Shown: positions 2,524 to 37,831 of the stretch, in pieces
How positions within the stretch are numbered: the stretch's first letter is position 1
Layout of the letters: every line of letters begins with the position of its first letter
NCBI GenBank assembly: GCA_020440465.1
Contig: JAGROB010000054.1
Span: forward strand, 1 to 43,550
Length of the DNA stretch: 43,550 bases
Direction: 5' to 3'
Source: Chlamydiia bacterium
GTDB lineage: Bacteria; Chlamydiota; Chlamydiia; Chlamydiales; Parachlamydiaceae
Position numbers and translations under genes: made by a program
The notes under the pieces: model-generated
Told to the model about the DNA's origin: nothing
The model's database searches: none
The model's input: only the letters and a program-made list of their open reading frames with translations

Positions 2524-2889
2524 TCATTTAAGCCACTTTCTGACAATCTTCGGAAGCTCTATAGGGTCAAAAGGCTTTGAGACAACATCCTGAACGCCTA
2601 GGTTTTTATACGCTTCTACCTCGTCTCTTTGCACTTTAGCTGTTACAAAAAGCACCGGCGTCTCTTTGTAGCCCGGCAGTTTTCTTAAAGCATGAAAAGT
2701 GGACACTCCATCTAACTCCGGCATCATAACATCGAGTAAAATCAGATCGAACAGCTTTTCCTTCATCAATTCAAGCGCTTCTTTACCTGTCGAGGCCGTG
2801 GTAAGATGGACATAATCCATTTTTCTTATGATGTAGCTCACAATCAGGGTAATATCGGGATCGTCATCGACAAAAAGCACCTCTTTCAT
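2524..2889 (-). CDS. Stand-alone response-regulator receiver (CheY-like), no output domain
   Basis: 121 aa. Acidic pocket VDDD, phospho-acceptor context LILLDVMMP, FVTA (Thr) and SKPF (Lys). 4-nt overlap with the kinase gene stop. Confidence 0.9.
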   Translation of the reverse strand: MKEVLFVDDDPDITLIVSYIIRKMDYVHLTTASTGKEALELMKEKLFDLILLDVMMPELDGVSTFHALRKLPGYKETPVLFVTAKVQRDEVEAYKNLGVQDVVSKPFDPIELPKIVRKWLK

Positions 2890-3962
2890 GGATTCCTTTT
2901 AACTGTAGGCAGCTGAAAATAAAACGTCGAGCCTTTCCCCTCTTCCGTCACAAAGTCAATCTGCCCCCCATGTCCCTCGATAATTTGCCGACAAAGTGTC
3001 AATCCCAATCCCGCCCCCTCATGCTTACGGGTGTGAACACTTTCCGCCTGAACAAAAGAGTCAAAAATAATCGGGTGAAACTCTTTGGGTATTCCCTTTC
3101 CCTTGTCTTTAACTAAAACTCTTACCCACCCTTTTCCCGTTTTAATGGTTATCGTAATTTCTTTTCCCTCATCAGAGGCTTTCATGGCGTTTTTGACTAA
3201 GTTCGACAAAACAATAGTAAGCCGCTCTTTATCTCCCCTGATATGAGGAGCAGGACCGCGGTTTAGCTTTAACTTTATCGGATGGGTCTTTATGGAAAAG
3301 CCCTTCATAAAGTCTTTGATTAACGCTTTAACCTCCAGAATCTCCATGTCATACTTCAAAACCCCCTCTTTCGAGTCTTTTATATCTAAAAGGTTCTCGA
3401 CCAAATCCTTTAATCTCAATGAGTTTTTATAAGCTACCTGGATAAAACTTTTTGCCTCCTTGGGACGCATAGACTCGGTTGTCAAAAGGGTTAGTGCTCC
3501 ATGAATCGCAGTTAAGGGGGTCCTGATCTCGTGACTTATAACGCTTGTCACTTCAAGTCTTAAAGCCTCTAGCCGCTTCATCTCGGAAAGGTCACGGCTC
3601 AAAACTCGAAACCCTTTTTGCTCTCCATGACTATCACTTAGGGCGGTGACTTTACTGTCAAACCACATCTCTCCCCCTTTTTTCGTATAAAAGCGTGTGG
3701 TTAGAGGTATGTTGGCTTTTTTTCCGAGATGCTTTGTACCAAACCGAAGCAAGATCATTTCGTGATCGTCGGGGTTAAGTAAGGAAAAGACATTTATTCC
3801 AAGAATCTCATCTTCAGAATACCCTAAAAGTTTTTCTACCGAGGGACTTGAAAAAAGAATGTTTCCCTTTAAATCGCACTCCCATAGCCAATCCTCCATC
3901 GTCTCGATATAGCTTCTGTAAAGCGCCTCGGTCTTTTTCTTACTGAGCGGCCTGGCTTTCAT
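2886..3962 (-). CDS. Soluble PAS-domain sensor histidine kinase
   Basis: No TM segment. PAS-like N-terminal half (WLWECDLKGNILFSSPSVEKLLGYSEDEILG). H-box SHEIRTPLTAIHG, N-box LVKNAMKAS, G1 DKGKGIP, G2 GAGLGL. Confidence 0.9.
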   Translation of the reverse strand: MKARPLSKKKTEALYRSYIETMEDWLWECDLKGNILFSSPSVEKLLGYSEDEILGINVFSLLNPDDHEMILLRFGTKHLGKKANIPLTTRFYTKKGGEMWFDSKVTALSDSHGEQKGFRVLSRDLSEMKRLEALRLEVTSVISHEIRTPLTAIHGALTLLTTESMRPKEAKSFIQVAYKNSLRLKDLVENLLDIKDSKEGVLKYDMEILEVKALIKDFMKGFSIKTHPIKLKLNRGPAPHIRGDKERLTIVLSNLVKNAMKASDEGKEITITIKTGKGWVRVLVKDKGKGIPKEFHPIIFDSFVQAESVHTRKHEGAGLGLTLCRQIIEGHGGQIDFVTEEGKGSTFYFQLPTVKRNP

Positions 3963-4941
3963 ATACTACCTTTACTTCCTGAGCGATCTCTTTTAGAGTC
4001 TCTTCTAAACGAATAGAGGGAGCAAACCCTGTAAGGGCTCTTAATTTAGTTAAGTCGGGACAACGCCGTCTGACATCGACAAAATCGACGCCGTACGCTT
4101 CCTTGTAGTCCATAAATACGATCTCGGAGTCACTATCAGTGATTTTCTTAATAAGTTTTGCCAAATCTAAAATAGAGCACTCCCGATCATCCCCCACATT
4201 AACGATTTCCCCTGAGCTTTTCGGCGTCTCCATTAAAAGGGAAAGCGCTTTGACGGTATCTTTTACATTGGAAAAAGAGCGGGTTTGAAGCCCGTCCCCA
4301 AAAACTGTAATCGGCTTTCCCGATAACGCTTGTTTCAAGAAATTCGGAACCACCATCCCATAAGCGGGGCTTTGTCTTGCACCAATCGTGTTAAAAAGCC
4401 TGGCGATCGTCACTTTAATCCCCCGCGAGTGGGCAAAACTAAGCGCCATGATTTCATTCACATATTTTCCCACAGGATATGTCTCTTGCAAGAATTTGCC
4501 CGTGGGGAAAATTAGATTCACATTTTCCGGGACTTTCTCGTTTTGGGGGATATCCAGATGGCAGTAAACCTCAGAAGTTGAAGCAATCAAAATTTTCGCA
4601 TTTGTTTTGGACTTACTCATCGCCTCAAAAAGTCTTTCAGCCCCGTCGATATTATTCGAAATCGTGTTTACCGGATGATTTAAGACGTATTTTTGTCCCA
4701 CGCTTGCCGCCATGTGGTAAATCGCGTCCGCCTCTTTTACCATCGATTCAAGACCGGAAAAGTCTAAAATATTCGCTTGCACAAACTTGAAGTTGGGATT
4801 CTTTTTGAAAGGTTCGATATTTCTTTCCGAACCCGTCTGCAAGTTGTCAATGACAAGAACCTTATCCCCCTGATTCAAGTGATACTCCGCAATATACGAC
4901 CCGATAAATCCGGCACCGCCTGTAACGATCACGTTTTTCAT
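3940..4941 (-). CDS. NAD-dependent sugar-nucleotide epimerase/dehydratase (SDR), UDP-uronate decarboxylase-like or 4-epimerase-like
   Basis: Rossmann motif VTGGAGFIGS, DNLQTGSERNI, STSEVY and YxxxK (YPVGK). Substrate and reaction cannot be resolved by eye. Confidence 0.85.
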   Translation of the reverse strand: MKNVIVTGGAGFIGSYIAEYHLNQGDKVLVIDNLQTGSERNIEPFKKNPNFKFVQANILDFSGLESMVKEADAIYHMAASVGQKYVLNHPVNTISNNIDGAERLFEAMSKSKTNAKILIASTSEVYCHLDIPQNEKVPENVNLIFPTGKFLQETYPVGKYVNEIMALSFAHSRGIKVTIARLFNTIGARQSPAYGMVVPNFLKQALSGKPITVFGDGLQTRSFSNVKDTVKALSLLMETPKSSGEIVNVGDDRECSILDLAKLIKKITDSDSEIVFMDYKEAYGVDFVDVRRRCPDLTKLRALTGFAPSIRLEETLKEIAQEVKVVYESQAAQ

Positions 4942-6239
4942 GCTTTAATCACCTTCGACTTAGTCCCTTCAAGCTCTCCCAAAGCATTTCTGCAGTCGAT
5001 AATAAGCGAGCTATTTTTTAATACCTTTTCCCATTGGTAGCTATCATGATCCGTCGCGATCACAACCGCATCATACTTATCTAATTTGTCGTAATCCAGG
5101 GGAGTATTTTTCATATCGACACGTTTGAGTTGTTCTACGTAAGGGTCATTATACTCAACCTCAGCCCCATGCTCTTTTAAAAACCGAAGAATATCGATGG
5201 CAGGGGACTCTCTTGTGTCGTTTACGTTTCTTTTGTAGCTAACCCCCAGCACCAAAACTTTGGAACCTTTTACGGGAAGTCCCTTCTCGTTCAGCCCCTC
5301 CGCGATTTTATTAAAGGTATAAAGGGGCATTTTGTCATTGATGTGCCCCGATAGATCCAATAGTGTGGTGGGTCCTTTGGTCGCTCTGGCTTTCCAGACC
5401 ATGTAAAACGGTGCGATCGGAATGCAGTCCCCCCCGGCGCCTGGGCTGGGATTAAATCTTTGAAATCCGAAGGGTTTACTATCAGCGGCCTCGATCACTT
5501 CCCAAACATCAATACCCATCTTTTCCAGCATCACTTTCATTTCGTTGATGAAGGAAATATTGACCAGTCGATAGCCGTTTTGAAGAAGTTTTGCCGCTTC
5601 CGCCACTTTCGGAGAAGAGACTTTAAACGTCTCGCATCCCAAAGACTCGTACAACATCGCCGCAAGCTCAAGACAGCGGGGGGTAATGCCGCTAACGATG
5701 CGGGGAATTTGGGAAAAACTAAATTTTTCGTTGCCCGGATCAGCAATCTCCGGCACATGGGCCAAGAAAAAGTCTTCCCCTACCTTGAAATTTTCTGAGG
5801 CTAACAGGGGTAAAAGCTCCTCTTCGGTCGTTCCGGGATAAGTCGAGCTTTGTAAGATGACAAGCTGATCCTTTTTTAGATGTGACCGTACCGTCTTGAA
5901 AGCGGCTCTCAAATTGGTTAAATCGGGGTTATGATACTCATCAAGCGTCGTTGGAACGGAAATGACCAAAATATCGGCATCGTCCAGGACGTCGGGATTG
6001 GAAGAGGCCTTAAACCTCCCTTCGTCCATCAGCTTAAAGAGCGAAGTCAGCGGCATAAAGTTTAAATAGCTTTTGCGGCGGTTTAAAAGCTCCATCCGTT
6101 CTTGAGAAACGTCGAAACCGCGGAGCTGAAAACCGGCATTTCCGTACGCCTCTAATAAAGAAAGCCCGATATAACCGACACCGATCACACCGACAATGGC
6201 CGTGCGGTCTTCGATTTTCTTTTTTAATATCTCTTCCAT
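4938..6239 (-). CDS. Nucleotide-sugar 6-dehydrogenase, UDP-N-acetyl-hexosamine class (WbpA/TviB/WecC-like)
   Basis: N-terminal GVIGVGYIGL Rossmann motif, SVPTTLD, and catalytic-Cys motif GAGGDCIPIAPFY resembling the GGHCIPxDPxY of UDP-HexNAc dehydrogenases. 433 aa. Confidence 0.85.
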   Translation of the reverse strand: MEEILKKKIEDRTAIVGVIGVGYIGLSLLEAYGNAGFQLRGFDVSQERMELLNRRKSYLNFMPLTSLFKLMDEGRFKASSNPDVLDDADILVISVPTTLDEYHNPDLTNLRAAFKTVRSHLKKDQLVILQSSTYPGTTEEELLPLLASENFKVGEDFFLAHVPEIADPGNEKFSFSQIPRIVSGITPRCLELAAMLYESLGCETFKVSSPKVAEAAKLLQNGYRLVNISFINEMKVMLEKMGIDVWEVIEAADSKPFGFQRFNPSPGAGGDCIPIAPFYMVWKARATKGPTTLLDLSGHINDKMPLYTFNKIAEGLNEKGLPVKGSKVLVLGVSYKRNVNDTRESPAIDILRFLKEHGAEVEYNDPYVEQLKRVDMKNTPLDYDKLDKYDAVVIATDHDSYQWEKVLKNSSLIIDCRNALGELEGTKSKVIKA

Positions 6240-7672
6240 TTCATGGGTCCTTTGGCTTCGATCGCTTTTACCATCTTATTAATTCTGCGACTTACCTTTT
6301 GAATTAAGGGAAATCGAGCAAAAAAGCTTATAATCCCCCTTATACGCCAAATTAACGTGAGTTGTCGATAGCCAAAGTTTTCTATGAGGCTGTACCAAAG
6401 AAGAAGCAATAAAGCCCTTGGGCTTGAGTACCTTCTGAAACTTTGATCCTCGATAAACAAACAAAAGACCGAGTAGACGAAGGTATAGCCCCACATGATA
6501 AAAACTAAAACCCAAACAAAAGCTATATTAACCAGTCCCAGATAAAGCCCAATTATAACATAGGTAATGCCGATCAGCTCCATAATCGGCTCGATCGCTT
6601 CCGAAAGTACGACAAAGGGCATCACAAACAGGCCATAAACTTTATATACAGGATTAAAAATCATTACTTTATGAAACCAAAGCGACTCCCAAAGCCCCCG
6701 TTGCCAATTCTGTCTTTGCCGCCCAAGTTCTTTAAAGGTCGTCGGTCCCTCCGTCCAGGCGACGGGGTCGGGAAGATAGACGATATCATAAGGAGTCTTC
6801 GTCTTCAGCATGATCCGATTTAAGCGTAAGATGGCTTCCAGATCGTCAGCCACTGTCTCTTGAAAGCCGCCCGATTTAACAACGGCGGCGTGATCGAAAA
6901 CGGTAAACGCTCCCGATAAGATGTGATTTCCGCCGATATAGTCCCACCCCTGCCTCATCAAAAATGCGCGCAAATACTCAAGCGACTGCATGGCAGCGAT
7001 ATAGCTTTTTGGAAAGTCTTCTGAGTTAATTGCACGGTAGCCCACCTCGCACCCGTTTAAAATGCGGACGCTTGCCCCCATCGCAATCGTTTGGGGTGAT
7101 GTAAAAATTGGGCGAATCAAAGCTTCAAAGCCCTTATTGTCGATACGAGAGTCTGCGTCAAAAGTCACAAAGTAAGGTGTCTTTACTGCATTTAACCCGG
7201 CATTGAGTGCGTCGTGCTTGGTGCCGTTTTCTTTATCGATCACCCACACTTCATGGTGGGATAAACTCCGGTAAAATCCCCTCACAGGCTTCGATATCAG
7301 CGTTTTTTCGTAGTACTCCGGTATTTTTACAAGATTAAGCCGTTTTTTGATGATATCCAAGGTCTCGTCAGTCGACCCGTCATTAATAACGATAATCTCT
7401 TTTGCGGGATAGGTCAGACTAATTAAGTTATCGATCGCCTCTCTGATATCTTTCGCTTCGTTGTAAGCCGGCATTAAAAAAGTGATACCGGGAAGGGAAT
7501 TCGACTGAATGTCGTGTAAAAAATCCTGAGCCTTAAGCTCTTTTTCCCGCCGGTATATTTTGGTCACGCCCAAAAGCAGAAGGGTGACATAAAGCACGTT
7601 GATGGAGCCGAAATAGATAAGAAATAATGGCTCCAACCAGATGGAGACGCTTTCGAAAAATGACTCCATCAT
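6224..7672 (-). CDS. Membrane-embedded processive family-2 glycosyltransferase (PgaC/IcaA/NodC/BcsA-like polysaccharide synthase)
   Basis: N-terminal TM helix. GT-A motifs NDGSTDET and FDADS, VADDLE, then Q-R-Q-N-W (QxxRW), followed by several C-terminal TM helices. The first ATG is at 7672; the ORF-track start at 7678 is TTG and directly abuts the HEAT gene stop. Confidence 0.85.
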   Translation of the reverse strand: MMESFFESVSIWLEPLFLIYFGSINVLYVTLLLLGVTKIYRREKELKAQDFLHDIQSNSLPGITFLMPAYNEAKDIREAIDNLISLTYPAKEIIVINDGSTDETLDIIKKRLNLVKIPEYYEKTLISKPVRGFYRSLSHHEVWVIDKENGTKHDALNAGLNAVKTPYFVTFDADSRIDNKGFEALIRPIFTSPQTIAMGASVRILNGCEVGYRAINSEDFPKSYIAAMQSLEYLRAFLMRQGWDYIGGNHILSGAFTVFDHAAVVKSGGFQETVADDLEAILRLNRIMLKTKTPYDIVYLPDPVAWTEGPTTFKELGRQRQNWQRGLWESLWFHKVMIFNPVYKVYGLFVMPFVVLSEAIEPIMELIGITYVIIGLYLGLVNIAFVWVLVFIMWGYTFVYSVFCLFIEDQSFRRYSSPRALLLLLWYSLIENFGYRQLTLIWRIRGIISFFARFPLIQKVSRRINKMVKAIEAKGPMKWKRY

Positions 7673-7678
7673 ATTCAA

Positions 7679-8731
7679 TCACCCAAAGTTCATCGCGTAC
7701 TGAAAAGCCTCTTTTGCTTCTGGACTTTTCGTTTCATCAATCGATTCTAAAATCTCCATTTCTTCGAAGCCAAATTTTTTTAAGCTCCGGGCAGCGCCGA
7801 TTTTTACTTTCCAAACGGGATCTTCGATGAGCGCTTTTTTGAGACGTTCGGTAGTCTCATTCGAGTATTGATATTGCATGCCATACGCCGCTTCCTCTCG
7901 TATTTTCCAGTCGGGATCATCCATTTGCTTCAGCAAAACGGAACGGGAATTTTTCTGTGGATTTCTGGCATGCACTTTTGTGGCATAGTAACGAAGATCT
8001 TCGTCATCGGCTGCAAGACAATCGTCTAATAGCCGTGTAGTCAGCTGAAAACTATTTCCCGACAAAAGATCTAAACAGGCAATTTTCGTAAATCGTTTCG
8101 TTTCCCTTAGTCCGAATTCCTCAATCCACTCTAAAACCTCCCTCGATTTCATTTTAAGCAGCATGTCTCTAAAATAATAGTGAGCATAGCCTGGCTCATC
8201 GCTCATATGCTCTATCATTTTATAGACAGCTTCCGGGCTTTTTAAGTTTTTTAGTGCCCGTGCCGCCTGGCATCGAACTAAAAATTCGGGATCGTCTAAA
8301 AGTTTTAAAAGATCTTCAAGGTCGTATTTTAAAGGGGCCAAAACAAAACACCTGGCGGCAAAATTTCGATTCATCCACGATGGGTGATTGACAAGTTGCC
8401 GGGCTTTCGGCAACAAAAAACTTATCGCGATATCTGCCCGAAGCTCAAGCCATTCTTCCCCGCTAAACCTTTCGGAAAAGTGCTCCAAAACCTTTAAAAG
8501 AGTTACTTTTCCGGCATAGGGCTTTAAAAGCTGAAGATTTTGGCTGCCCGGCTCCATCACTTCGTTTACTATTAGATCGGAAATAAATCGTTTGGCTTCT
8601 TTTCTTTTTCGATCCAGCACATAGCGCGTAAAACCATGCGTTACCATCCCTGAAAAAAGGAGGAAAAATACCGTGACCAAAAAGATAAAGATGACCCACG
8701 CTAAGCTGATGATCGCATGCTGAAAAAACAC
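7679..8731 (-). CDS. Membrane-anchored HEAT-repeat protein
   Basis: GTG start 4 nt after the receiver gene stop. N-terminal TM helix (ISLAWVIFIFLVTVFFLLF). At least 4 HEAT/PBS-lyase-like repeats: DPEFLVRCQAARALKNL, DDEDLRYYATKV, DDPDWKIREEAAYGM, EDPVWKVKIGAARSLKKFG. Confidence 0.75.
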   Translation of the reverse strand: MFFQHAIISLAWVIFIFLVTVFFLLFSGMVTHGFTRYVLDRKRKEAKRFISDLIVNEVMEPGSQNLQLLKPYAGKVTLLKVLEHFSERFSGEEWLELRADIAISFLLPKARQLVNHPSWMNRNFAARCFVLAPLKYDLEDLLKLLDDPEFLVRCQAARALKNLKSPEAVYKMIEHMSDEPGYAHYYFRDMLLKMKSREVLEWIEEFGLRETKRFTKIACLDLLSGNSFQLTTRLLDDCLAADDEDLRYYATKVHARNPQKNSRSVLLKQMDDPDWKIREEAAYGMQYQYSNETTERLKKALIEDPVWKVKIGAARSLKKFGFEEMEILESIDETKSPEAKEAFQYAMNFG

Positions 8732-8735
8732 GGGG

Positions 8736-9128
8736 TTATTCTCTCTCCTGTTTAACTAAGGAGAGTGCTTTATTCACTAAAATCTGCAGGTTAAACGGCT
8801 TGCCGATATAATCTACAGCCCCCGTCCTTAAACCGGTTAGCACTTCTCTGTCTGAGGATAAAACCGAAAGCACAAGACAGGGCATATGATGCTCTTTTTC
8901 TCCCCACAACTTCAAAATTTCGATTCCATCCATGTCGGGCAAAATTCGGTCCAAAATTAAAAGATTCACATCCCTGTAGCGGCTCTCTTCAAACAGGTAT
9001 TTTTTTGCCGCCGCTCCCGTGTGAATACAGGTGACTTCAAATCCCCGGGACTCTAAAGCTCTTTTAATAAGCGCGGTTAAATCTTCATCGTCGTCAACAA
9101 CAACAATGTGTTCTTTTTTATCATTCAT
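8736..9128 (-). CDS. Stand-alone response-regulator receiver (CheY-like), no output domain
   Basis: 130 aa. VVVDDDED, LLILDRILPDMDG, LVLSV, YIGKPF. Confidence 0.9.
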   Translation of the reverse strand: MNDKKEHIVVVDDDEDLTALIKRALESRGFEVTCIHTGAAAKKYLFEESRYRDVNLLILDRILPDMDGIEILKLWGEKEHHMPCLVLSVLSSDREVLTGLRTGAVDYIGKPFNLQILVNKALSLVKQERE

Positions 9129-9420
9129 GCCTTAAAAAACTCTCCTGAAGTTGGTCTAGAGAACGTTTTAACTCATCGAGTTTTTTTTGAGGTAGCTCAA
9201 GTTTCAAAGTCTCTTCCATTGTTCTTAAAATTTTGGATAGCTCAGGGTAGCCGTAGGTTCCCGCACTTCCTGCAAACTTATGGATCTCGATATAAAGCGC
9301 TTTATATGCCGTCTCCGTGGGGTCTATACCATAAGCATTTAGAAGCCCTCTAATCGTTTCGATTTTTCCGGGAATCTTCTCTTTATATAACTCTTTTAAA
9401 TCAGCGGGTATCTCTTCCAT
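9121..9420 (-). CDS. Histidine phosphotransfer (Hpt) protein
   Basis: 99 aa, predicted helical. Hpt signature IHKFAGSAGTYGY (HxxKGxxxxxG). The start ATG directly abuts the TAG stop of the upstream porin gene. Confidence 0.8.
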   Translation of the reverse strand: MEEIPADLKELYKEKIPGKIETIRGLLNAYGIDPTETAYKALYIEIHKFAGSAGTYGYPELSKILRTMEETLKLELPQKKLDELKRSLDQLQESFLRHE

Positions 9421-11445
9421 CTAAAACCTTAAATCTGCCTGGGCTCTTACACTCCAGACGGTATAGTCAAGGGTGTCTTTGTAGTAGGTTCCTGTCGTAA
9501 AAATATCAAAACAGGACGTTGGGTTATACCCCAGCGTCCAGAAAAATTGGTGAATCTGCCACGACTCCGTCACGATCGGAAACAAGATCGGTAGCGGAAT
9601 CACAACGATCTGGTTGCCGGGGTCTCTTCCCCTTGTCGTTCTTAGGCCATACCAGTATTCAAGATTGCACCGTAAACCATTTAACCAGCGTTTATTAAAG
9701 TGCGCCATAAACCAATGCGTTGCTTGATAATCGAAAGAATAATAGCCGAACGTCTCTTCTTTAAACTGGCGATATGAAAAATAATATCCCAAAGAAAAAT
9801 TTTCCGTATATTTGGGAATCCCCATCTCCAGCCAGCCCCAAAAGGCTTGCTCTTGGTTACTTATCGGATCATTATAAAAGATCCACGTCGCGCTTGCCCC
9901 GTAAAAACGGTTAGGGCCGAAGGTGTATTGATAATTTAAAAAGGGAGCCTCTCGGGTGAATACTTTCGTTTTTTGCTGAAAATAGTCACGGTAGATCCAA
10001 CCGTCGGTAATCACCCCCAAAAATAACCTTTGGGTGTCAGTTTGATACTTCCAAACGACTGAAGGCTCGATCAAAAGCTTTTCCTCGATCGGCAAAACGG
10101 CATGACTATCCAGATCCGTCGCGTATTCGATGGTCAAATCGGCCTGTGTCGACCACTCAGGGCTATTAAACCACTCCCCGCGAACGACTCCCCCATCTAA
10201 GCGCAAGTCAAACTGGTTTCTTCCCGAAATCAAGTATCTTTGACGCACCTGATTCGAGCGCCCTTTTAGCGTTACACGAAAACGGTCGTGGACGGGGTAA
10301 GTGACACCGGCTTCGGCGTTAATGTAACGTATCGAGGCCACCCATCTATCTAAAAACTGACTTTTTTCCCGTTCTTCCCCGTAGCCTCCAATGACAAAAG
10401 CTGTTGGACGGGTGTGGCTGTAGGTATCAAATAAAGCGGCTCGATAGCCCCGTTCATCACAGGTTAAAGATCTGCCGTACCGAAAAGCCCTTGCCGCTTG
10501 TGTGTAGCGCCGATCTTTGGCAAGCAGCGCCCCCATCATTTTCCATGCGGGCTCTCTTGTGGGCTCAAGCTCCAAAAAAGTCCAGAGTGTCTTTTCTGCC
10601 CTGCAATCATCGCCAAGCTTCTGATACGCCCGAGCCAGGCCATAATATGCTTCGGCATAGTCGGGGTTAAGGCGCAAAACTTCTTCATAAAGTGCCTTTC
10701 CCAAGCAGTATTGTTTTACGATCAGATACTGACCCGCAAGGAGCAAAAGCGCGTCTTGGTGATCGGGCTTAATCTCAAGCGCTCTTTCAAACGCCTCAAT
10801 CGCAGCACAAGGGCACTCCATTCTGCGGTAGTTATCCCCCAGACGAAACCAAAGATCGGCATTATCGGGCTCCTCTTCGATGAGGGGCTCTAAGATTTGG
10901 ATAGCGGAAGTATTATCCCCGGCCTCTCTTAGAGCTTTTTCCTCTTTTAGAAGCGGCTCGAAAGGATGCGGTTTTTCAGGTTCAGGTTCAGGTTCAGGTT
11001 CAGGCTCCGGCACGGGAAGAGGCGCTTTTAGACTAAGCGCCTCATACATTAGGCTATACGCCAAAAGGACTTTAATGTCGGGATTATCGGGGTCGGCTTT
11101 CATCGCTCGCCGAAATAAGGGCGTTGCGAGCGAAAAAAGTTGGTTTCGGTAGTAAATCCTTCCTAATTGATAAAGATAGATTGCTTCTTGGGGATATTGA
11201 TCGACAAGATGCTCGAGCAGCTCCACGCCCTTCCATTTTGCTTTTTTTGGTTTTAAGACGGAGGGCTCTATCTCATTCGCTTTAATTTTAGCAATTTTTT
11301 CAAGTCCTTTGATTGCATCGGGGTAGCCGGGAGCCTCGATTAAAGCTTCTTCAAAAAGCAGCTCGCTTTCGTCCAACTCCAACGCACTAAGGCTTAAGAA
11401 AAATGACGAAATAAAAATAATCAAAAAAAGTCTTTGGCGTCCCAT
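9421..11445 (-). CDS. Secreted TPR-repeat protein with a C-terminal beta-barrel (PgaA/BcsC/PelB-like polysaccharide export porin candidate)
   Basis: Signal-peptide-like N-terminus MGRQRLFLIIFISSFFLSLSALE from the ATG at 11445. TPR-type repeats (e.g. AIEAFERALEIKPDHQDALLLLAGQY, YEEVLRLNPDYAEAYYGLARAY). The C-terminal ~325 aa is rich in alternating, aromatic beta-strand patterns and ends ...VRAQADLRF, an OMP-type terminal Phe. The ORF-track start at 11589 overlaps the mutS start and precedes the signal peptide, so it was rejected. Confidence 0.7.
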   Translation of the reverse strand: MGRQRLFLIIFISSFFLSLSALELDESELLFEEALIEAPGYPDAIKGLEKIAKIKANEIEPSVLKPKKAKWKGVELLEHLVDQYPQEAIYLYQLGRIYYRNQLFSLATPLFRRAMKADPDNPDIKVLLAYSLMYEALSLKAPLPVPEPEPEPEPEPEKPHPFEPLLKEEKALREAGDNTSAIQILEPLIEEEPDNADLWFRLGDNYRRMECPCAAIEAFERALEIKPDHQDALLLLAGQYLIVKQYCLGKALYEEVLRLNPDYAEAYYGLARAYQKLGDDCRAEKTLWTFLELEPTREPAWKMMGALLAKDRRYTQAARAFRYGRSLTCDERGYRAALFDTYSHTRPTAFVIGGYGEEREKSQFLDRWVASIRYINAEAGVTYPVHDRFRVTLKGRSNQVRQRYLISGRNQFDLRLDGGVVRGEWFNSPEWSTQADLTIEYATDLDSHAVLPIEEKLLIEPSVVWKYQTDTQRLFLGVITDGWIYRDYFQQKTKVFTREAPFLNYQYTFGPNRFYGASATWIFYNDPISNQEQAFWGWLEMGIPKYTENFSLGYYFSYRQFKEETFGYYSFDYQATHWFMAHFNKRWLNGLRCNLEYWYGLRTTRGRDPGNQIVVIPLPILFPIVTESWQIHQFFWTLGYNPTSCFDIFTTGTYYKDTLDYTVWSVRAQADLRF
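10975..11010. repeat. Hexanucleotide tandem repeat (TTCAGG x5 plus 1 degenerate unit) encoding (PE)6 in the porin gene
   Basis: Direct reading gives ttcagg at 10975, 10981, 10987, 10993 and 10999, then ctccgg. On the minus strand this translates as PEPEPEPEPEPE. Confidence 0.9.
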
Positions 11446-14045: not shown

Positions 14046-14726
14046 ATGTTGAACAACTGCACGCTTTACGCCTATCACCATACGGGAAGTTTAGTCCTTC
14101 AGTTTGTTCTCAACGACTTTTTGATGGCTTTAGAAGAAGCCTCTTTTATCGAGTCGTTCACCCGGAACGAGACGGACTCCAACCGGTTTTACCATCAGCT
14201 CACTTGCTATCTAATTAAGCTGGCCGGATCGGAGCAAGAGTACAAGCGGATTTTTTCCTGGATTGTCGACGCCGGGGTTTTAACTAAACTTAAGACCAAC
14301 TCCGATTTACTTTCCGAAAAAGGGGAAAAATCGGATAACGACTATATGGAATTGCATAACTGCGCGCATAAAACCTGGCTCTATTGCTTAAACGCCGTCG
14401 ATCAGCTTCGCGATGTCGAGCGAGCACAAGGCTCCATTACCGATTTAAAAGAGGGCGTTGAAAAAGCGATCACCTCTCTTCATAAGTTGAAGCCCTTGAT
14501 CGAAAAAATTATCCCAAAGTTTGCGCAAGATGAGAACGTGATTTATTTTATCCTGCGCCACCATGAAAGCTTTGATCGCCATATGGGCTCCGGCTGGACC
14601 CGAAAACTTTTGTCGCGCCTTTACCCCGAAGGGATCTTTGATTTCATGAAGGAGCGGTATGAAACGCGGGGCTTTTTTGAGCATATCCCCCGCATTAAGC
14701 TTAAGATAGAGGAGCTGGCTTTATGA
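14046..14726 (+). CDS. Hypothetical protein
   Basis: 226-aa ORF starting 9 nt after mutS. No motif recognised. 4-nt overlap with the next ORF. Confidence 0.55.
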   Translation: MLNNCTLYAYHHTGSLVLQFVLNDFLMALEEASFIESFTRNETDSNRFYHQLTCYLIKLAGSEQEYKRIFSWIVDAGVLTKLKTNSDLLSEKGEKSDNDYMELHNCAHKTWLYCLNAVDQLRDVERAQGSITDLKEGVEKAITSLHKLKPLIEKIIPKFAQDENVIYFILRHHESFDRHMGSGWTRKLLSRLYPEGIFDFMKERYETRGFFEHIPRIKLKIEELAL

Positions 14727-15196
14727 CAGAGGCTTCCAAGGAAGAGCTTTTAGAGATCACCTCCAGCTTAAAACTTACCCTTACCGAGACCTTCGACCGA
14801 TCCTTAAGAGTCCCCATTGATTTTAAAGAGATCGAGGCATTTCATAAAAAAGAGTTTCCCAACTACCCCTTAGAGACACCCCAAAAAGGCACTGATATCT
14901 GCTTAGTCTCTTTTGGCGAGTCGGACGCTTACAAACCCTTTTTCAAAATGCTTAAATCAGCCCTTGAAATGACGTTTAATACCGATGTCGTAATCACCCA
15001 CAAAACGGATTGGCAATCGGCTAAATTAGTGATTGCTTGCGAAGCCGATCCTAAAACGCTTTCCGATTTAAAAGATGTTCCCCACCTTATTTTGTCCAAC
15101 CTTACTGACTATCAAAAAGAGCCCCAACAAAAACGCGCCTTCTGGAAAGCCTTATGCCAGGAAATTGTCCGCCTGAAATTGCCGAAGTCCTGTTAG
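14723..15196 (+). CDS. Hypothetical protein
   Basis: 157-aa ORF coupled to the preceding ORF by an ATGA overlap, and overlapping the priA start by 43 nt. No motif recognised. Confidence 0.55.
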   Translation: MTEASKEELLEITSSLKLTLTETFDRSLRVPIDFKEIEAFHKKEFPNYPLETPQKGTDICLVSFGESDAYKPFFKMLKSALEMTFNTDVVITHKTDWQSAKLVIACEADPKTLSDLKDVPHLILSNLTDYQKEPQQKRAFWKALCQEIVRLKLPKSC

Positions 15197-17391
15197 ACGT
15201 CAACTTAGAAAGGCCGCTTGACTATCGGATTCCGGAGGCTTTACTTAATCTAGTCACTCCGGGAAGCCGCGTTGAAATCCCTTTAAGAAACGGTTCTGCC
15301 TTCGGCGTAGTCTCAAAAATAAAGTCTCACTGCGACTTTCCCAACCCCAAAGCGATTTTAAGAGCCATTGAGGAAGCCAGCATCAAATCGGATCTCTTTG
15401 AGCTAGCCCTTTGGATGTCCGATTTTTACCTGACCCCCTTGAAAAAGGTCTTGAAAATCTTGCTTCCCAAAAGCGTAAGAACCGAAAAAAAAGAAAAGCT
15501 ACAATTCGCCGTTCGCCGAAAAAAATCGCTCGCAGAGATCACTCAAGAAGCTGTTCGACTTAGGACAAAAAGTCCCAGGCAAGCTCAAGTCTTGGATGTT
15601 ATGTTAAAAGCGGAAAAGGAAGCACTTTTGACAGAAGTTTTAGAAGCCTCTCAAGCCTCAAGAGCCTCTTTAGAAAGTTTAGTTAAAAACGGCTGGCTTG
15701 AGCTAGTTAAAGTCCAAATCTATCGATCCCCGTTGGAAGGTGCAGAGTATTTTAAAACCCTCCCTAAAACGCTTAATGAAGAGCAAAAAGAGGCACTTTC
15801 TAAAATTTCAGAGTCTATCCTATCGTCAAGGTTTGAAACCCATCTACTGTGGGGCATCACGGGCAGCGGCAAAACCGAAGTTTATCTTCAAGCCATACAA
15901 AAGGCGCTCGACCAAAATAAGGGCGCCATTTTAATGGTTCCCGAAATCGCGTTGACAGAGCAGACGATTGAGCGTTTCAGAAGCCGGTTCGAGGGGCATA
16001 TCGCGATCCTTCACCACCGACTCTCCGAGGGAGAAAGACTGGACGAGTGGCACCGGGTTCGAAAAGGAGAGGCTAGAATTGTGATCGGGGCAAGATCGGC
16101 CATCTTCTCCCCCGTTCAGAATTTAGGGATCATTATCATCGACGAAGAGCACGAAGATACGTACAAACAATCGGACGAGCACCCCCGCTACCACGCAAGA
16201 GAAGTGGCCATCATGCGGGCCAAAATTTTGGGGATTCCCGTGGTCTTGGGCTCCGCCACTCCCGCGCTTGAGACCTTTCACAACGCCATCACAAAAAAAT
16301 TCACCCTTTCGGAGCTATCATTTCGCGCGACCTCCCAAGCGCTTCCTAAGCTTGAAATCGTCGATATGAAGCGAGAGTATGAAAAAAACGGAGGCTATAC
16401 GCTTTTCTCAAGCGCGCTTTTAGAAGGAATAAAATCTCGCGCAGAGGCAGGTGAGCAAACGCTTTTGTTTTTAAATCGCCGGGGCTATCACTCCTGTATG
16501 AAATGTTTGGGGTGTGGAGAGGCGATTAAATGTCGTCATTGCGATGTCTCCTTAACCTTTCACAAATCGGAAAAAAAGCTTGCCTGCCACCTATGCGGCT
16601 ATGAAACCCCGCCCCCCACCATCTGTCCCGAATGTAAGACAGCCAACCCGATGAAGTTTAAGGGGGTCGGCACCGAGCAGGCGGAGGCGACTTTGAAAGC
16701 GGTCTTCCCCGAAATCCGCACCCTAAGAATGGACGCTGACACGACCCGGCATAAGGGAAGCCATGGCAAGCTTTTTAAAGCATTCGGACGGGGTAAAGCC
16801 GACGTGTTGATCGGCACGCAAATGGTGGCAAAAGGGCTCCACTTTCCCGAAGTGACGTTAGTGGGGGTATTATCTTGCGACACCAGTTTAAATATCCCCG
16901 ACTTTAGAGCCTCGGAAAAAACATTTCAGCTGCTCACACAGGTGGCGGGCCGTGCCGGCCGGGGCGTAAAAGCGGGTGAAGTGATCTTACAAACGCTCCT
17001 TCCCGATAACGATACGATTTTACTTGCCCTGAAACAGGACTTTCGTGCCTTTTATGAGGAAGAAATTGCCGTCCGGAAATGCTTTTCCTACCCCCCCTAT
17101 TCCGCCCTTGTTAAGATTTCTTCATCTTCTCTTTCGGAAAAAAAGGGCTTTCATACCCTTGAAAACTTGAGAAATGCACTGATCCCCCATCTTCCCCCAA
17201 ACTGCGAACTTATGCCCCCGCTGCCTGCCGGACATGCTCGTGTGAAGGACCACTATCGGTTTAATCTGCTCCTGAAGGGGCCCACTCCCCTCCCCCTCCT
17301 TCGAGCGCTTCGCCCAATCTTACCTAAGTTCTTAACCCTTAAAGATGTAAAAATTTCCGTCGACGTCAACCCCTCTTCCACGTTTTTCTAA
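15154..17391 (+). CDS. priA: Primosomal protein N' (replication restart helicase PriA)
   Basis: 745 aa. Walker A GITGSGKTEVY, DEEH box, and Cys-rich zinc region CLGCGEAIKCRHCDVSLTFH...CHLCG...CPEC. Confidence 0.95.
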   Translation: MPGNCPPEIAEVLLDVNLERPLDYRIPEALLNLVTPGSRVEIPLRNGSAFGVVSKIKSHCDFPNPKAILRAIEEASIKSDLFELALWMSDFYLTPLKKVLKILLPKSVRTEKKEKLQFAVRRKKSLAEITQEAVRLRTKSPRQAQVLDVMLKAEKEALLTEVLEASQASRASLESLVKNGWLELVKVQIYRSPLEGAEYFKTLPKTLNEEQKEALSKISESILSSRFETHLLWGITGSGKTEVYLQAIQKALDQNKGAILMVPEIALTEQTIERFRSRFEGHIAILHHRLSEGERLDEWHRVRKGEARIVIGARSAIFSPVQNLGIIIIDEEHEDTYKQSDEHPRYHAREVAIMRAKILGIPVVLGSATPALETFHNAITKKFTLSELSFRATSQALPKLEIVDMKREYEKNGGYTLFSSALLEGIKSRAEAGEQTLLFLNRRGYHSCMKCLGCGEAIKCRHCDVSLTFHKSEKKLACHLCGYETPPPTICPECKTANPMKFKGVGTEQAEATLKAVFPEIRTLRMDADTTRHKGSHGKLFKAFGRGKADVLIGTQMVAKGLHFPEVTLVGVLSCDTSLNIPDFRASEKTFQLLTQVAGRAGRGVKAGEVILQTLLPDNDTILLALKQDFRAFYEEEIAVRKCFSYPPYSALVKISSSSLSEKKGFHTLENLRNALIPHLPPNCELMPPLPAGHARVKDHYRFNLLLKGPTPLPLLRALRPILPKFLTLKDVKISVDVNPSSTFF

Positions 17392-17445: not shown

Positions 17446-19011
17446 ATGTCAGCAGATTATGGGACCTTAGGCCCGCCACCTAGCACCCCCCCTCCCCCAC
17501 CACCCGATACCGGTAAAACAAGTGGAGCGCAGAATGCTCAAGCGCCTACTCAAACTCAAGTAAATCGAACGAATCAGAAAGTTGAAGAAGCGGTAAGCGT
17601 TGAAGATCTTATGAAAGAGTTAGACGCGCTTTTTAGTCAATCAAGGGACTCTCTTGAAGGTCGTGCCAGCACCGACACCTCTAAGGTTTCCACCGTTGAG
17701 ATTGAAAAGCAACAACTAGAAGGGTTTACCGCCCTTGTAGCAACTAAAGGAAAACCCCCTGCTGCACCGAAACCACAAACTGAATCGAAACGAAATTTCG
17801 AACCCACTCCTCCTTCCACACCCAGCCCCGCTGCCCAAAAACGCGGAGCTGAAGCCAAAAAAAGCCCGGGCATTCAGATAACCGGGGATGAAGCGGCCCA
17901 ATTAGCCAAAGAGTTTGAAGCGGCAGAGGGCTTGCCTGTAGTCCACATAGATGCTTCATCTGAAAGTGTTGATGATTTGAGAGAACAGCTGTCTGAAATC
18001 GAAGACGACATAAGTCACATAACAGACAAAACCTCTCCCGACTACCAATTCCGAATGAATGAGAAGAAGAAAGTAGAAACCAAAATCCGACAGCTAACCG
18101 GAGAATCTCCGCAAACAGAAGGCGCCACGAAGAAGCGGAAGTTTGAAGCCTTGACGACGACAATTTCAGATGGTTTTCAAACCTGGGTGGACGGAGCCAA
18201 AAGAATGGTTCCAATAGCGACAAGCGCGATTAAATCAGCCAATGCTAAACGTCAAAAGACCGGACGTGACGAGCTTGACCGACTGGGACAAGAAGTAGTT
18301 GATAGCGCCCAAGCCAAAGTAGGCGAAGAGGGTGGCAAGTCCAAAGGGCGTCTAAGAGATTTAACCCAAACCTTCAGCCACATCTATCCCCGAAAACGGG
18401 CGCAGACTGAATCAACTCCTTTGTCTGATGCCTCCACAAACGAGGGTACTTCAAAACAGTCTTGGGTCAATCTGGCAAACTTGACTAGAAGTTTTACTGA
18501 ACTCGCTCTTAAAAAAGCAAGAGCCGAAGCCATAAATCAACAGAGAGACCTTTTGGAGGGTAAGCTAAGAAAGGCTAAAGCAGACTTAGAAGATTTTACA
18601 GGTTACTATGACGAGGAAGAAGACGTGGGTCTTAAATTTAAGTTAGGAAAAGAAGTGGATAGACTCAAAAATGAAGTCAAAAATCTGGAAGAGTCTTTAA
18701 GGCTATTCAAAGAGCCATCCGATGCTTCTGAACAACCTCAAAAAAGCCCTTCTAGCGCCCCACTCACAGAAGCTGCAGCGCCCGATAAAAGAGCTCAAAA
18801 ACTTGCAAAACAACAAATTGAAGAAATGAAAGGCCCCTACAGAAGAGCTGTATACGATCTTGAGCAACAGCGGGAATATCTTGCAGAAGCTCAAGCGCCG
18901 TATGAAAAGCGACTTTTAGAAGCTAGTATCGCAAGGCTTAAAAAAGATATCGATAGCTTTCAGGCTGTAACGGGACTAACTCCCGAAGAAGTTACTGAAG
19001 AAGAGAATTAA
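17446..19011 (+). CDS. Proline-rich / coiled-coil orphan protein (candidate secreted effector)
   Basis: 521 aa with an AGAGGAG SD 6 nt upstream. No signal peptide or TM segment. N-terminal PPPSTPPPPPPD, second tract PPAAPKPQ...PTPPSTPSPAA, and a Glu/Lys-rich C-terminal half with heptad-like character. Confidence 0.7.
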   Translation: MSADYGTLGPPPSTPPPPPPDTGKTSGAQNAQAPTQTQVNRTNQKVEEAVSVEDLMKELDALFSQSRDSLEGRASTDTSKVSTVEIEKQQLEGFTALVATKGKPPAAPKPQTESKRNFEPTPPSTPSPAAQKRGAEAKKSPGIQITGDEAAQLAKEFEAAEGLPVVHIDASSESVDDLREQLSEIEDDISHITDKTSPDYQFRMNEKKKVETKIRQLTGESPQTEGATKKRKFEALTTTISDGFQTWVDGAKRMVPIATSAIKSANAKRQKTGRDELDRLGQEVVDSAQAKVGEEGGKSKGRLRDLTQTFSHIYPRKRAQTESTPLSDASTNEGTSKQSWVNLANLTRSFTELALKKARAEAINQQRDLLEGKLRKAKADLEDFTGYYDEEEDVGLKFKLGKEVDRLKNEVKNLEESLRLFKEPSDASEQPQKSPSSAPLTEAAAPDKRAQKLAKQQIEEMKGPYRRAVYDLEQQREYLAEAQAPYEKRLLEASIARLKKDIDSFQAVTGLTPEEVTEEEN

Positions 19012-19954
19012 ACACACCTTTGGTAGCCCAGAAGGTCCAACCTTGAGGATGAAGCCAGGAGAGAAGGGCTCTTGAGGAGTAGGGAAGGGTTTCTAAGATA
19101 GATTGCATGAGGGCGGTATTGTCTGTGGGCGGTGGTGCCCCTTCTTTTTGGACATGTAGTGTTATCCCTTGGAATTCAAGCGTCTGGTCGTAAAACGGGG
19201 TGGGGTTAGGCGTTTTTTTGAGCGGCTCGCCGTAATCTTTTAGCAGGTTTAAAAAATCGGGATCGTTCATCAGGGACCGAGAGACGACAATACCGAAAGA
19301 GGCTATCGGAGTGGCTTTACCTTCGTTTTTGACAAGTTGAGTAATGAAATCACCGAATAAGAAAGCTTTATCGGGTCCCTTTTGCACTAAATAAAGACCT
19401 AACTTTAAAAAAATTGGGTGTGCTAACCCCGGCGTATCAACTCCGCCGAAATTTAGCGATTTAAGCGCATAGGGGCGACGCTTTTCTTCAAAAAAAAGAT
19501 AAGAGCTTTTGTCGATAAGATCGGGGTCGAAGGGTTTGTCTTGTATCCAAAGCTGATCCAAATCAACAAGCGTTCGGGGATGAGCTTCAAGGTAGCGTTT
19601 GAGTCGGGGTGTAAGTACCCCTTTTTGCATCACCGCGGCGAGCGCAATTGCGCGAAACATCGGATTCGGCGGCTTCATCATATCGGCCGTTTCTAATAAG
19701 ACATCGGCATTGTGCTCTTTTAAAATATCCATACACTGTTCCATCGACGATCTGGGGGAGAGGCGCCTTAAAAGCACATGCATGGCCCCTTCGTTCAAAA
19801 TTCCCAGAGGAGGTACGGTAAACTCGGAGGGAGAGCGGGGTGTCTCCGAAGGGCTTACAGAGTGAGAGGAGGCCAGGCTTAAAATCGTAGAAGTTGCAGG
19901 TTCCATAGGCAACAAGCCTATGCGCGATACACATTTCCTACAACCCCAAACCAT
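18992..19954 (-). CDS. Hypothetical protein
   Basis: 320-aa ORF with no motif recognised. Its 3' end overlaps the convergent 17446..19011 ORF by 20 nt. The start is uncertain (alternative ATG at 19906). Confidence 0.55.
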   Translation of the reverse strand: MVWGCRKCVSRIGLLPMEPATSTILSLASSHSVSPSETPRSPSEFTVPPLGILNEGAMHVLLRRLSPRSSMEQCMDILKEHNADVLLETADMMKPPNPMFRAIALAAVMQKGVLTPRLKRYLEAHPRTLVDLDQLWIQDKPFDPDLIDKSSYLFFEEKRRPYALKSLNFGGVDTPGLAHPIFLKLGLYLVQKGPDKAFLFGDFITQLVKNEGKATPIASFGIVVSRSLMNDPDFLNLLKDYGEPLKKTPNPTPFYDQTLEFQGITLHVQKEGAPPPTDNTALMQSILETLPYSSRALLSWLHPQGWTFWATKGVFNSLLQ

Positions 19955-37513: not shown

Positions 37514-37831
37514 TTACTGGCTACTTTCTTTCAACCAATTCAAGTAAGCCTCACTCCCCCCTTCAATCGTCTTGTACAAGACCTCCGGGATGTCGTACTT
37601 GCTGTTTTGTTCAATCACTTTTAAAATCTTTTCAAAGTTACCTTTTAAAGCTTTAAAGACCACTTTGCTTTCTTGCTCTGATTCAAGCTGGCCATCCAAT
37701 AAATAGATCGACTCGATCCACGGAATAATTTTTGCGGAAGCAATCCATTTTTCCTGAACCAGGTATCTCGATACTTTTCTGGCCTCGTCAATGGAACCGG
37801 CGGCCCAGCTTATTTCAATAATCTCCGTCAT
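37514..37831 (-). CDS. cutA: Divalent-cation tolerance protein CutA
   Basis: 105 aa. CutA1 pattern (...ARKVSRYLVQEKWIASAKIIP.IESIY...G...E..E...V.K). Confidence 0.8.
   Translation of the reverse strand: MTEIIEISWAAGSIDEARKVSRYLVQEKWIASAKIIPWIESIYLLDGQLESEQESKVVFKALKGNFEKILKVIEQNSKYDIPEVLYKTIEGGSEAYLNWLKESSQ

Follow-up and report, generated by a model that had tools for sequence, protein, structure and literature searches.

We analyzed a stretch of 43,550 nt from a Chlamydiia bacterium (contig JAGROB010000054.1, positions 1 to 43,550; hereafter, the window) in which nine minus-strand genes located between positions 2524 and 11445 form a putative exopolysaccharide operon (table 1). In the order of transcription, these genes encode an outer-membrane TPR protein, an Hpt protein, a first single-domain receiver (RR1), a HEAT-repeat protein with a transmembrane (TM) segment, a glycosyltransferase of family 2 (GT2), a sugar-nucleotide dehydrogenase, a short-chain dehydrogenase/reductase (SDR), a histidine kinase, and a second single-domain receiver (RR2). 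All of them abut or overlap save for one 4-nt gap. An initial annotation of this DNA had listed the successive junctions as abutting, an 8-nt overlap, a 4-nt gap, abutting, and overlaps of 16, 4, 23, and 4 nt, and we recovered identical values from the coordinates of the open reading frames (ORFs). Pfam and NCBIfam searches confirmed each of the domain calls of this annotation as well as its gene order. The arrangement of the nine genes is not a matter of chance, since the order of its core recurs in dozens of independent loci (see below). For the first gene, whose frame is open back to a TTG at position 11589, the ATG at position 11445 is the best start because a gene beginning with the TTG would extend into the divergently oriented mutS (position 11563), and because the ATG yields a signal-peptide-like N-terminus (MGRQRLFLIIFISSFFLSLSA).

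Table 1. Features of the putative exopolysaccharide operon, listed in the order of transcription, with the evidence used to define them (aa, amino acids).
Feature	Coordinates	Strand	Evidence
TPR/outer-membrane protein	9421-11445	minus	ATG at 11445; Pfam TPR families
Hpt protein, 99 aa	9121-9420	minus	Pfam PF01627
REC protein RR1, single-domain receiver, 130 aa	8736-9128	minus	Pfam Response_reg
TM-HEAT protein, 350 aa	7679-8731	minus	Pfam HEAT_2 and hydropathy
GT2 synthase (predicted)	6224-7678	minus	Pfam GT2 families
NDP-sugar 6-dehydrogenase (predicted)	4938-6239	minus	TIGR03026
SDR, UXS type (predicted)	3940-4941	minus	PDB sequence match to human UXS1
PAS-HisKA-HATPase histidine kinase, 358 aa	2886-3962	minus	Pfam PAS_9, HisKA, HATPase_c
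REC protein RR2, single-domain receiver, 121 aa	2524-2889	minus	Pfam Response_reg
Structured 3' region and U-tract, possible operon terminator	2335-2525	minus	Folding

The GT2 protein (484 aa from its TTG start; 482 aa from the ATG, which is the start of the database call) presents TM segments at its N- and C-terminus based on hydropathy. Its relatives number in the thousands, and the 120 closest ones (44–58% identity) include proteins whose source names are Parachlamydiaceae, Simkania, and other Chlamydiota. When comparing the protein to 31 relatives, we observed that residues D98 (DGS), D172 and D174 (DxD), D277 (catalytic base), and Q319-R320-x-x-W323 were invariant or nearly so. The processivity motif (positions 6711-6725; residues 319–323) reads QRQNW rather than Q(Q/R)xRW. 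The fourth position of QxxRW is also variable among these relatives (Arg in 11, Asn in 9, and Leu in 5 of them), indicating that the family tolerates the loss of the usual Arg. We then compared an AlphaFold2 model of the protein (predicted local distance difference test, pLDDT, of 90.6; predicted TM-score, pTM, of 0.90) to solved structures with Foldseek. The ten best matches were all processive hyaluronan synthases aligned over their full length, followed by BcsA and by chitin synthases of fungi and oomycetes. Relative to the hyaluronan synthases of Chlorella virus and Xenopus, the TM-score was 0.62–0.66 over about 500 columns. The model, the fold matches, and the motifs support the prediction of an inner-membrane processive synthase/translocase that would form its own channel, in line with the processive GT2 of the initial annotation.

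The product of the first gene was modeled by AlphaFold2 as a signal-peptide-like helix (residues 1–21) followed by TPR helices (residues 72–345) and by a barrel of 16 beta-strands (residues 348–673), which bears out the C-terminal beta-barrel that had been annotated. The mean pLDDT of this model is 82 and most blocks of the barrel range from ~85 to 95, with values below 50 in the loop formed by residues 610–626. Used alone as a query, the barrel domain did not retrieve any homolog, nor even its own protein. A profile built from 11 orthologs of related loci identified 18 database proteins, and the alignment of these proteins was used as input for the structure prediction. Among solved structures of the PDB, E. 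coli BcsC (9b8a and 9b8h) was the only one found by Foldseek to match both the TPR region and the barrel (564–603 aligned columns; E about 1e-13); the remaining matches covered the TPR region only. The C-terminal ~340 residues are conserved among orthologs and show alternating hydrophobicity, and they end with a Phe that is invariant among 11 and among 19 orthologs. At the sequence level, the barrel showed no match to PDB chains using hmmsearch, and hhalign probabilities were 0.7 against PgaA and 0.6 against NfrA. Since similarity to known porins was not detected in these searches, the role of the barrel in export is deduced from its predicted fold and from gene linkage: all Chlamydiota loci with sufficient flanking sequence carry an ortholog of the TPR-barrel gene next to that of the GT2, in varying orientations. 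These results support the prediction of a polysaccharide export porin with a periplasmic TPR scaffold. Its barrel family is new at the sequence level, yet it presents the architecture of known polysaccharide porins. We also observed a Pro/Glu-rich stretch (LPVPEPEPEPEPEPEKPHP) at positions ~10975-11035 (residues ~139–158), located between the N-terminal TPR pair and the main array; it is predicted to be disordered (pLDDT < 50).

The properties of these two proteins bear on a different function, in which the GT2 would make a short oligosaccharide as NodC does, or else a glycan located in the periplasm or bound to the membrane, with another role for the TPR-barrel protein, for instance as a Slam-like translocon of surface lipoproteins. 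The relaxed QxxRW motif is compatible with such a function, as is the presence of the non-processive membrane enzyme PcManGT among the fold matches (TM-score 0.47), the lack of sequence similarity between the barrel and known polysaccharide porins, and a weak match to the Pfam family TPR_Slam. However, the latter match (19 bits) is far below the cut-off of the family (35.2 bits), the ten best full-length fold matches of the GT2 are processive enzymes, and BcsC matches the TPR-barrel model over both domains. In addition, the TPR-barrel and GT2 genes remain linked in Chlamydiota despite rearrangements. We therefore consider this function improbable.

We further analyzed the two enzymes predicted to supply the sugar precursor. 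The dehydrogenase passed the general model TIGR03026 only (364 bits relative to a cut-off of 190). The next-best models, those of archaeal UDP-N-acetylmannosamine (UDP-ManNAc) dehydrogenase, TviB, and WecC, all scored below their own cut-offs. Its best PDB matches are 4r16 and Cap5O, and UDP-glucose dehydrogenases match it clearly less well. These similarities predict a nucleoside diphosphate (NDP)-sugar 6-dehydrogenase nearest to the UDP-ManNAc and UDP-N-acetylglucosamine (UDP-GlcNAc) dehydrogenases. The SDR, which had been annotated as an epimerase/decarboxylase, has human UXS1, a UDP-glucuronate decarboxylase, as its best PDB match (187 bits; 122 bits for the next family). Its STSEVY, Y-x-x-G-K, and FNT-G-R motifs are conserved in the alignment with this enzyme and include the UXS-type signature (S/T-x-E and YxxxK). 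The Ser/Thr-x-Glu signature characterizes decarboxylases such as UXS and ArnA, not 4-epimerases. The SDR is predicted from these features to be a UXS-type UDP-uronic acid decarboxylase; of the two activities first proposed, the decarboxylase is retained and the epimerase is not. This pair of enzymes resembles a route of Bacillus cytotoxicus, reportedly described by Gu and colleagues in 2010 (cited in PMC12407052 and PMC4514872), that converts UDP-GlcNAc to the corresponding uronic acid (UDP-GlcNAcA) and then to UDP-N-acetylxylosamine (UDP-XylNAc).

Several known synthase-dependent systems share parts of this layout. The closest sequence relative of the GT2 catalytic domain is PgaC, the synthase of the Pga/Ica systems: PgaC/IcaA was the best NCBIfam match (TIGR03937; 104.9 bits relative to a cut-off of 422.3), the hhalign probability against E. 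coli PgaC reached 99.6 over the catalytic domain only, and JGI names homologs of the protein cellulose synthase/PNAG synthase-like, PNAG being poly-N-acetylglucosamine. The locus also resembles Pga/Ica in its TPR-barrel porin, which is comparable to PgaA, and in the pairing of the synthase with a small membrane-anchored partner encoded beside it, as for PgaC and PgaD. The locus could accordingly be viewed as a divergent Pga (PNAG) system in which the GT2 would correspond to PgaC and the outer-membrane protein to PgaA. However, the PgaC score is so far below its cut-off that the GT2 is not a PgaC ortholog, the PgaA model TIGR03939 gave 20.9 bits relative to a cut-off of 366.65, and the comparison of the barrel to PgaA was not significant. 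The partner of the GT2 is a 350-aa HEAT solenoid, whereas PgaD is a protein with two TM segments. Neither PgaD nor the PgaB deacetylase was found among the nine proteins with Pfam; more generally, and as first annotated, the nine proteins gave no match to deacetylase, hydrolase, or lyase domains (Pfam and NCBIfam; E ≤ 0.01), and Pfam did not reveal any periplasmic modifying enzyme, epimerases included, within the operon. Finally, the presence of a dehydrogenase and a decarboxylase dedicated to the pathway implies a sugar other than that of Pga. A divergent Pga system is the weakest of the alternatives that we considered and appears very improbable.

The cellulose system Bcs presents the same two elements of architecture: an inner-membrane processive GT2 with its own channel, BcsA being among the top fold matches, and an outer-membrane protein made of periplasmic TPRs and a 16-strand barrel, with BcsC as the best two-domain structural match. 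In contrast to Bcs, the operon lacks PilZ, BcsB, and BcsZ, its predicted regulator is a REC protein with a HEAT protein rather than cyclic di-GMP (c-di-GMP) with PilZ, and its uronate and decarboxylase enzymes imply a polymer other than one of glucose. Membership in Bcs was rejected based on the scores of the BcsA model (TIGR03030; 28.9 bits relative to 699) and of the BcsC model (25 bits relative to 858), together with the absence of PilZ and BcsB. Class I hyaluronan synthases (those of Chlorella virus and vertebrates, and the streptococcal HasA with HasB) are the best full-length fold matches of the GT2, and the has operon also places the synthase gene beside a nucleotide-sugar 6-dehydrogenase gene. 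In contrast, the dehydrogenase gene of the window specifies an enzyme of the N-acetylhexosamine (HexNAc) type and precedes a decarboxylase gene, and hyaluronan synthases do not have a HEAT or REC partner or an outer-membrane porin. This likeness is restricted to the fold: a sequence search of the PDB returned no hyaluronan synthase chain at E ≤ 0.01, and membership in this family was rejected. NfrA-NfrB of E. coli shares a minimal layout, in which a GT2 synthase is combined with a TPR-barrel protein of the outer membrane and the precursor derives from HexNAc. NfrB differs in carrying a C-terminal domain that binds c-di-GMP, and its relation to the GT2 is limited to the generic fold. The GT2 and the barrel did not match NfrB and NfrA significantly (hhalign probabilities of, respectively, 1.9 and 0.6), and this assignment was rejected as well.

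The remaining genes encode signaling proteins. The complete set of kinase, Hpt, and two receivers that had been annotated was recovered, since the HisKA, HATPase_c, Hpt, and two Response_reg domains all scored above their cut-offs with intact motifs. The Hpt protein reached 36.7 bits for PF01627 (cut-off of 24.6 bits) and carries the motif HKFAGSAG, RR1 and RR2 reached, respectively, 74.9 and 96.7 bits for Response_reg (Pfam), and the H-box of the kinase reads SHEIRTPL. Acceptor-site residues read from the sequences are D60 and K110 in RR1 and D53 and K105 in RR2. The RR1 gene lies directly upstream of the HEAT gene, and the alignment of 54 sequences of receivers found beside HEAT shows that Asp13 of the acidic pocket is conserved in 93% of them, the acceptor Asp60 in 83%, and Lys110 in 100%. 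Hydropathy did not indicate any TM segment in the kinase, RR1, or RR2. Both receivers contain the Response_reg domain only (Pfam and NCBIfam), in agreement with the annotation of receivers lacking a DNA-binding output.

The operon therefore contains the component set of a four-step His-Asp-His-Asp phosphorelay. We infer that phosphate passes from the kinase to RR2, Hpt, and RR1, based on the translational coupling of the kinase with RR2 (4-nt overlap) and of Hpt with RR1 and on gene fusions found in relatives, where Hpt is fused to REC domains. These fusions include a REC-Hpt-dehydrogenase in one related chlamydial locus (L001) and a REC-Hpt beside a kinase in another locus (L015), both with an RR2-type REC, and they tie the relay to the polysaccharide pathway. 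The fusion protein of L001 (positions 14436-16493 of that contig) is a dehydrogenase of 685 aa with an N-terminal receiver and Hpt, and it is possible that the relay also acts directly on precursor supply.

The HEAT protein (HEAT_2; 70.3 bits with Pfam) presents a single N-terminal TM segment based on hydropathy. This helix is followed by a K/R-rich stretch, which implies that the solenoid is cytoplasmic. Its family (95 clusters at E ≤ 1e-30) is discrete, collinear, and of uniform length (~340–355 aa), with an N-terminal TM segment in 71 of 73 members and conserved residues W119, R122, R127, D147, and R278. The protein is predicted to be an adaptor or regulatory subunit of the synthase.

We then searched for related loci using contigs with three chlamydial homologs and by scanning a single genome for each species. 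This yielded 85 loci (82 non-redundant; numbered with the prefix L), whose ORFs were searched with the nine proteins of the window. A HEAT-family ORF ended within 250 nt of the GT2 start in 69 of the 74 loci with at least 1.1 kb of upstream sequence, and a receiver-containing ORF ended within 250 nt of the HEAT start in 60 of the 63 loci with room further upstream. Within the combination singled out by the initial annotation for neighborhood searches, the order [Hpt..REC], TM-HEAT, and GT2 proved to be nearly invariant across the non-redundant loci. The loci with this core belong to Chlamydiota, many Gemmatimonadota, Nitrospirota, Chloroflexota, and Cloacimonadota (at least five phyla), which shows that this regulatory core is not restricted to Chlamydiae. 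Clustering of the ORFs near the module revealed as other conserved neighbors mainly antisense shadow ORFs of high-GC genomes and unrelated housekeeping genes. Several Gemmatimonadales loci (L016, L017, L018, L020, L021, L030, L038, and L056) encode a longer GT2 (~711–764 aa) with a C-terminal extension of ~230–280 aa that has no Pfam match.

The proteins encoded upstream of HEAT in relatives take two forms based on Pfam searches of representatives: Hpt-REC proteins of ~270–360 aa, and REC-Hpt-REC-GGDEF-REC proteins of ~700–930 aa (L005, L019, L032, L044, L064, L074, L085, and similar loci). Both forms end in a REC domain adjoining HEAT. This order is kept in the window, where Hpt and REC are encoded by two distinct genes that overlap. 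The recurrence of the REC-HEAT-GT2 order in five phyla provides strong comparative support for a receiver acting through the HEAT protein.

We considered whether HEAT could instead serve only in structure or assembly, as PgaD, IcaD, or the BcsB anchor do. The relay could then affect transcription via a partner encoded elsewhere, serve as a phosphate sink, or target the sugar-nucleotide enzymes. The contact between REC and HEAT is indeed deduced from gene order only, the fusion of L001 joins REC-Hpt to the dehydrogenase and not to HEAT or GT2, and some of the related relays include extra kinases and receivers. Against a structural role, the receiver lies directly upstream of HEAT in these 60 of 63 loci, even when kinases are absent or distant, which would be difficult to account for if the receiver did not work with the HEAT-GT2 pair. 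Moreover, neither of the two receivers of the window has a DNA-binding domain. A structural HEAT protein is unlikely, even if it is the least improbable of the alternatives.

The long upstream proteins raise another possibility, namely that the module is basically a c-di-GMP system in which HEAT or the synthase senses the nucleotide, the chlamydial version having lost its cyclase and relying on c-di-GMP made elsewhere. The REC proteins encoded upstream of HEAT contain GGDEF domains in Gemmatimonadota, Nitrospirota, Chloroflexota, and Cloacimonadota as well as in two loci of Chlamydiota, and six of these proteins retain GG(D/E)EF with the RxxD site. In addition, synthase-dependent systems usually rely on c-di-GMP for activation (PMC12802240). 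However, 20 of the 26 long upstream proteins lack GG[DE]EF, about half of the loci, the window included, have Hpt-REC or REC proteins without GGDEF, and the element adjoining HEAT is always a C-terminal REC. In the nine proteins of the window, we did not detect PilZ, GGDEF, EAL, MshEN, or GIL domains, nor any other of the c-di-GMP receptor modules PgaD, PelD, and Alg44 (Pfam and NCBIfam; E ≤ 0.01). The absence of GGDEF stated in the initial annotation therefore holds for the window but does not extend to the family, many members of which carry a mostly degenerate GGDEF in the upstream receiver protein. These degenerate proteins may be c-di-GMP receptors or scaffolds. Overall, we give little credence to a module that is primarily controlled by c-di-GMP.

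Our results point with reasonable probability to a synthase-dependent exopolysaccharide system gated post-translationally by a His-Asp phosphorelay through a HEAT partner. Under this model, the HexNAc-type 6-dehydrogenase and the UXS-type decarboxylase would supply an unusual precursor, which similarity predicts to be a UDP-hexosaminuronic acid and/or a decarboxylated pentosamine such as UDP-XylNAc. The inner-membrane GT2, judging from its fold and motifs, would polymerize this sugar and thread the chain through its own channel, and the chain would cross the periplasm along the TPR domain before exiting via the 16-strand barrel. The soluble PAS kinase would receive the input and start the four-step relay, with RR2 and Hpt as intermediates and RR1 as the terminal receiver. 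Phosphorylated RR1, which lacks an output domain, would bind the cytoplasmic HEAT solenoid, as suggested by conserved gene order only. The TM helix of HEAT would pack against the GT2 and pass the signal to its catalytic or gating region, switching polymerization on or off. The REC and HEAT pair would in this way fill the slot occupied in known systems by PilZ, PgaD, PelD, or Alg44 with c-di-GMP.

Synthase-dependent pathways are frequently controlled at the post-translational level through c-di-GMP, and in Myxococcus xanthus the single-domain receiver EpsW activates the polysaccharide enzyme EpsZ by direct contact (PMC12802240). As in the model proposed here, where the contact is deduced, a phosphorylated receiver without output domain controls exopolysaccharide synthesis post-translationally. 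However, EpsW-EpsZ operates in a Wzx/Wzy pathway, targets a phosphoglycosyl transferase, and has no HEAT adaptor, whereas the system of the window is synthase-dependent.

Several observations weigh against the gating of a synthase-dependent system through HEAT. The contacts of RR1 with HEAT and of HEAT with the GT2 are deduced from gene order only, and no fusion of HEAT with REC or GT2 was found among the 150 best representatives of the family. No sequence similarity of the barrel to PgaA, NfrA, or PDB chains was detected, and an hmmsearch of all fetched loci did not reveal a homologous barrel adjoining the module outside Chlamydiota. The fourth position of QxxRW is Asn in the window, and only 11 of the 31 relatives have Arg there. 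All equivalog models scored below their cut-offs for both sugar enzymes, whose substrates are assigned by similarity only. Finally, we infer a single transcript from the tight coupling of the genes, since the counts of promoters and terminators predicted by scanning the window did not differ from those expected in shuffled sequences.

Near the module, some loci of Gemmatimonadota and Nitrospirota encode TPR proteins whose C-termini resemble those of outer-membrane proteins (..GLRFTQGL, ..FNLIWHW, and ..GQWTF). These were found in L029 (6668-8158), L047 (7136-8680), L076, and L031; in L064 (12831-14627) and L082 (13016-15001); and in L074 (14346-16493), L078, and L081. Their comparison to the chlamydial barrel with hhalign was not significant. 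These proteins may be the local export porins.

A synthase-dependent machine with a TPR porin is known already. What is new is the regulatory slot, with its phosphorelay receiver and predicted HEAT adaptor, as well as the barrel family and the precursor pair. We did not find a published description of a HEAT/REC/GT2 module in the full-text literature, whose coverage is incomplete such that an earlier account is possible. The words Chlamydia, HEAT, response regulator, Gemmatimonad, and Nitrospir are absent from a 2020 census of synthase-dependent operons, and the database names of the module proteins are generic (glycosyltransferase family 2, TPR repeat protein, or hypothetical). We tentatively propose, with less confidence than for the gating itself, that systems with the Hpt/REC-HEAT-GT2 core form a widespread, so far undescribed class of synthase-dependent machines in which phosphorylated REC, through HEAT, replaces or complements c-di-GMP, and that the chlamydial polymer, containing HexNAc-uronate or XylNAc, would be the first synthase-dependent exopolysaccharide of this phylum.

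If confirmed, switching by a phosphorelay and HEAT would constitute a second mode of control for synthase-dependent machines (cellulose, PNAG, Pel, alginate, and Nfr). Because the core is found in at least five phyla, including the abundant Gemmatimonadota of soils and the nitrifying Nitrospirota, its relevance to biofilms and matrices would extend beyond one chlamydial genome. Chlamydiae are obligate intracellular bacteria that also pass through an extracellular stage, and the regulated export of a polymer would be relevant to their attachment to the host, to their survival outside of it, or to the biology of the inclusion. The system is compact (nine genes, three of which form the core) and directly testable by heterologous expression.

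We finally examined the surroundings of the operon. The 210-nt spacer past the last gene is predicted to adopt a branched fold (minimum free energy of -58.1 kcal/mol; z = -2.3) closed by a 12-bp stem (CUGCGGAGAGGG / CCCUCUCUGCAG), with UUUUU directly after it. This region did not match Rfam, and no Rfam family was found anywhere in the window. It may represent the terminator of the operon or a small structured RNA. The neighboring genes are housekeeping genes (mutS, priA, miaB, lysS, cysS, fabF, type III glnA, miaA, murG, and ftsW) and the GC-content is uniform over the window, indicating that the operon belongs to the core chromosome of a chlamydia-like organism. Five ORFs encoding 157–533 aa (14046-15196, 17446-19011, 18992-19954, 33937-35538, and 37815-38540) presented no Pfam match at E ≤ 1e-8. 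The minus-strand gene at positions 25185-27899 encodes a protein of 904 aa whose AMP-binding domain is confined to residues 399–760 and whose N-terminal ~400 residues carry no domain assignment. Lastly, a single minus-strand ORF of 794 aa (38527-40911) encodes a MurC-like Mur ligase fused to a D-Ala-D-Ala ligase (MurC-Ddl), a fusion typical of Chlamydiae that agrees with the taxonomic assignment, and is followed by murG and ftsW (40880-43032).

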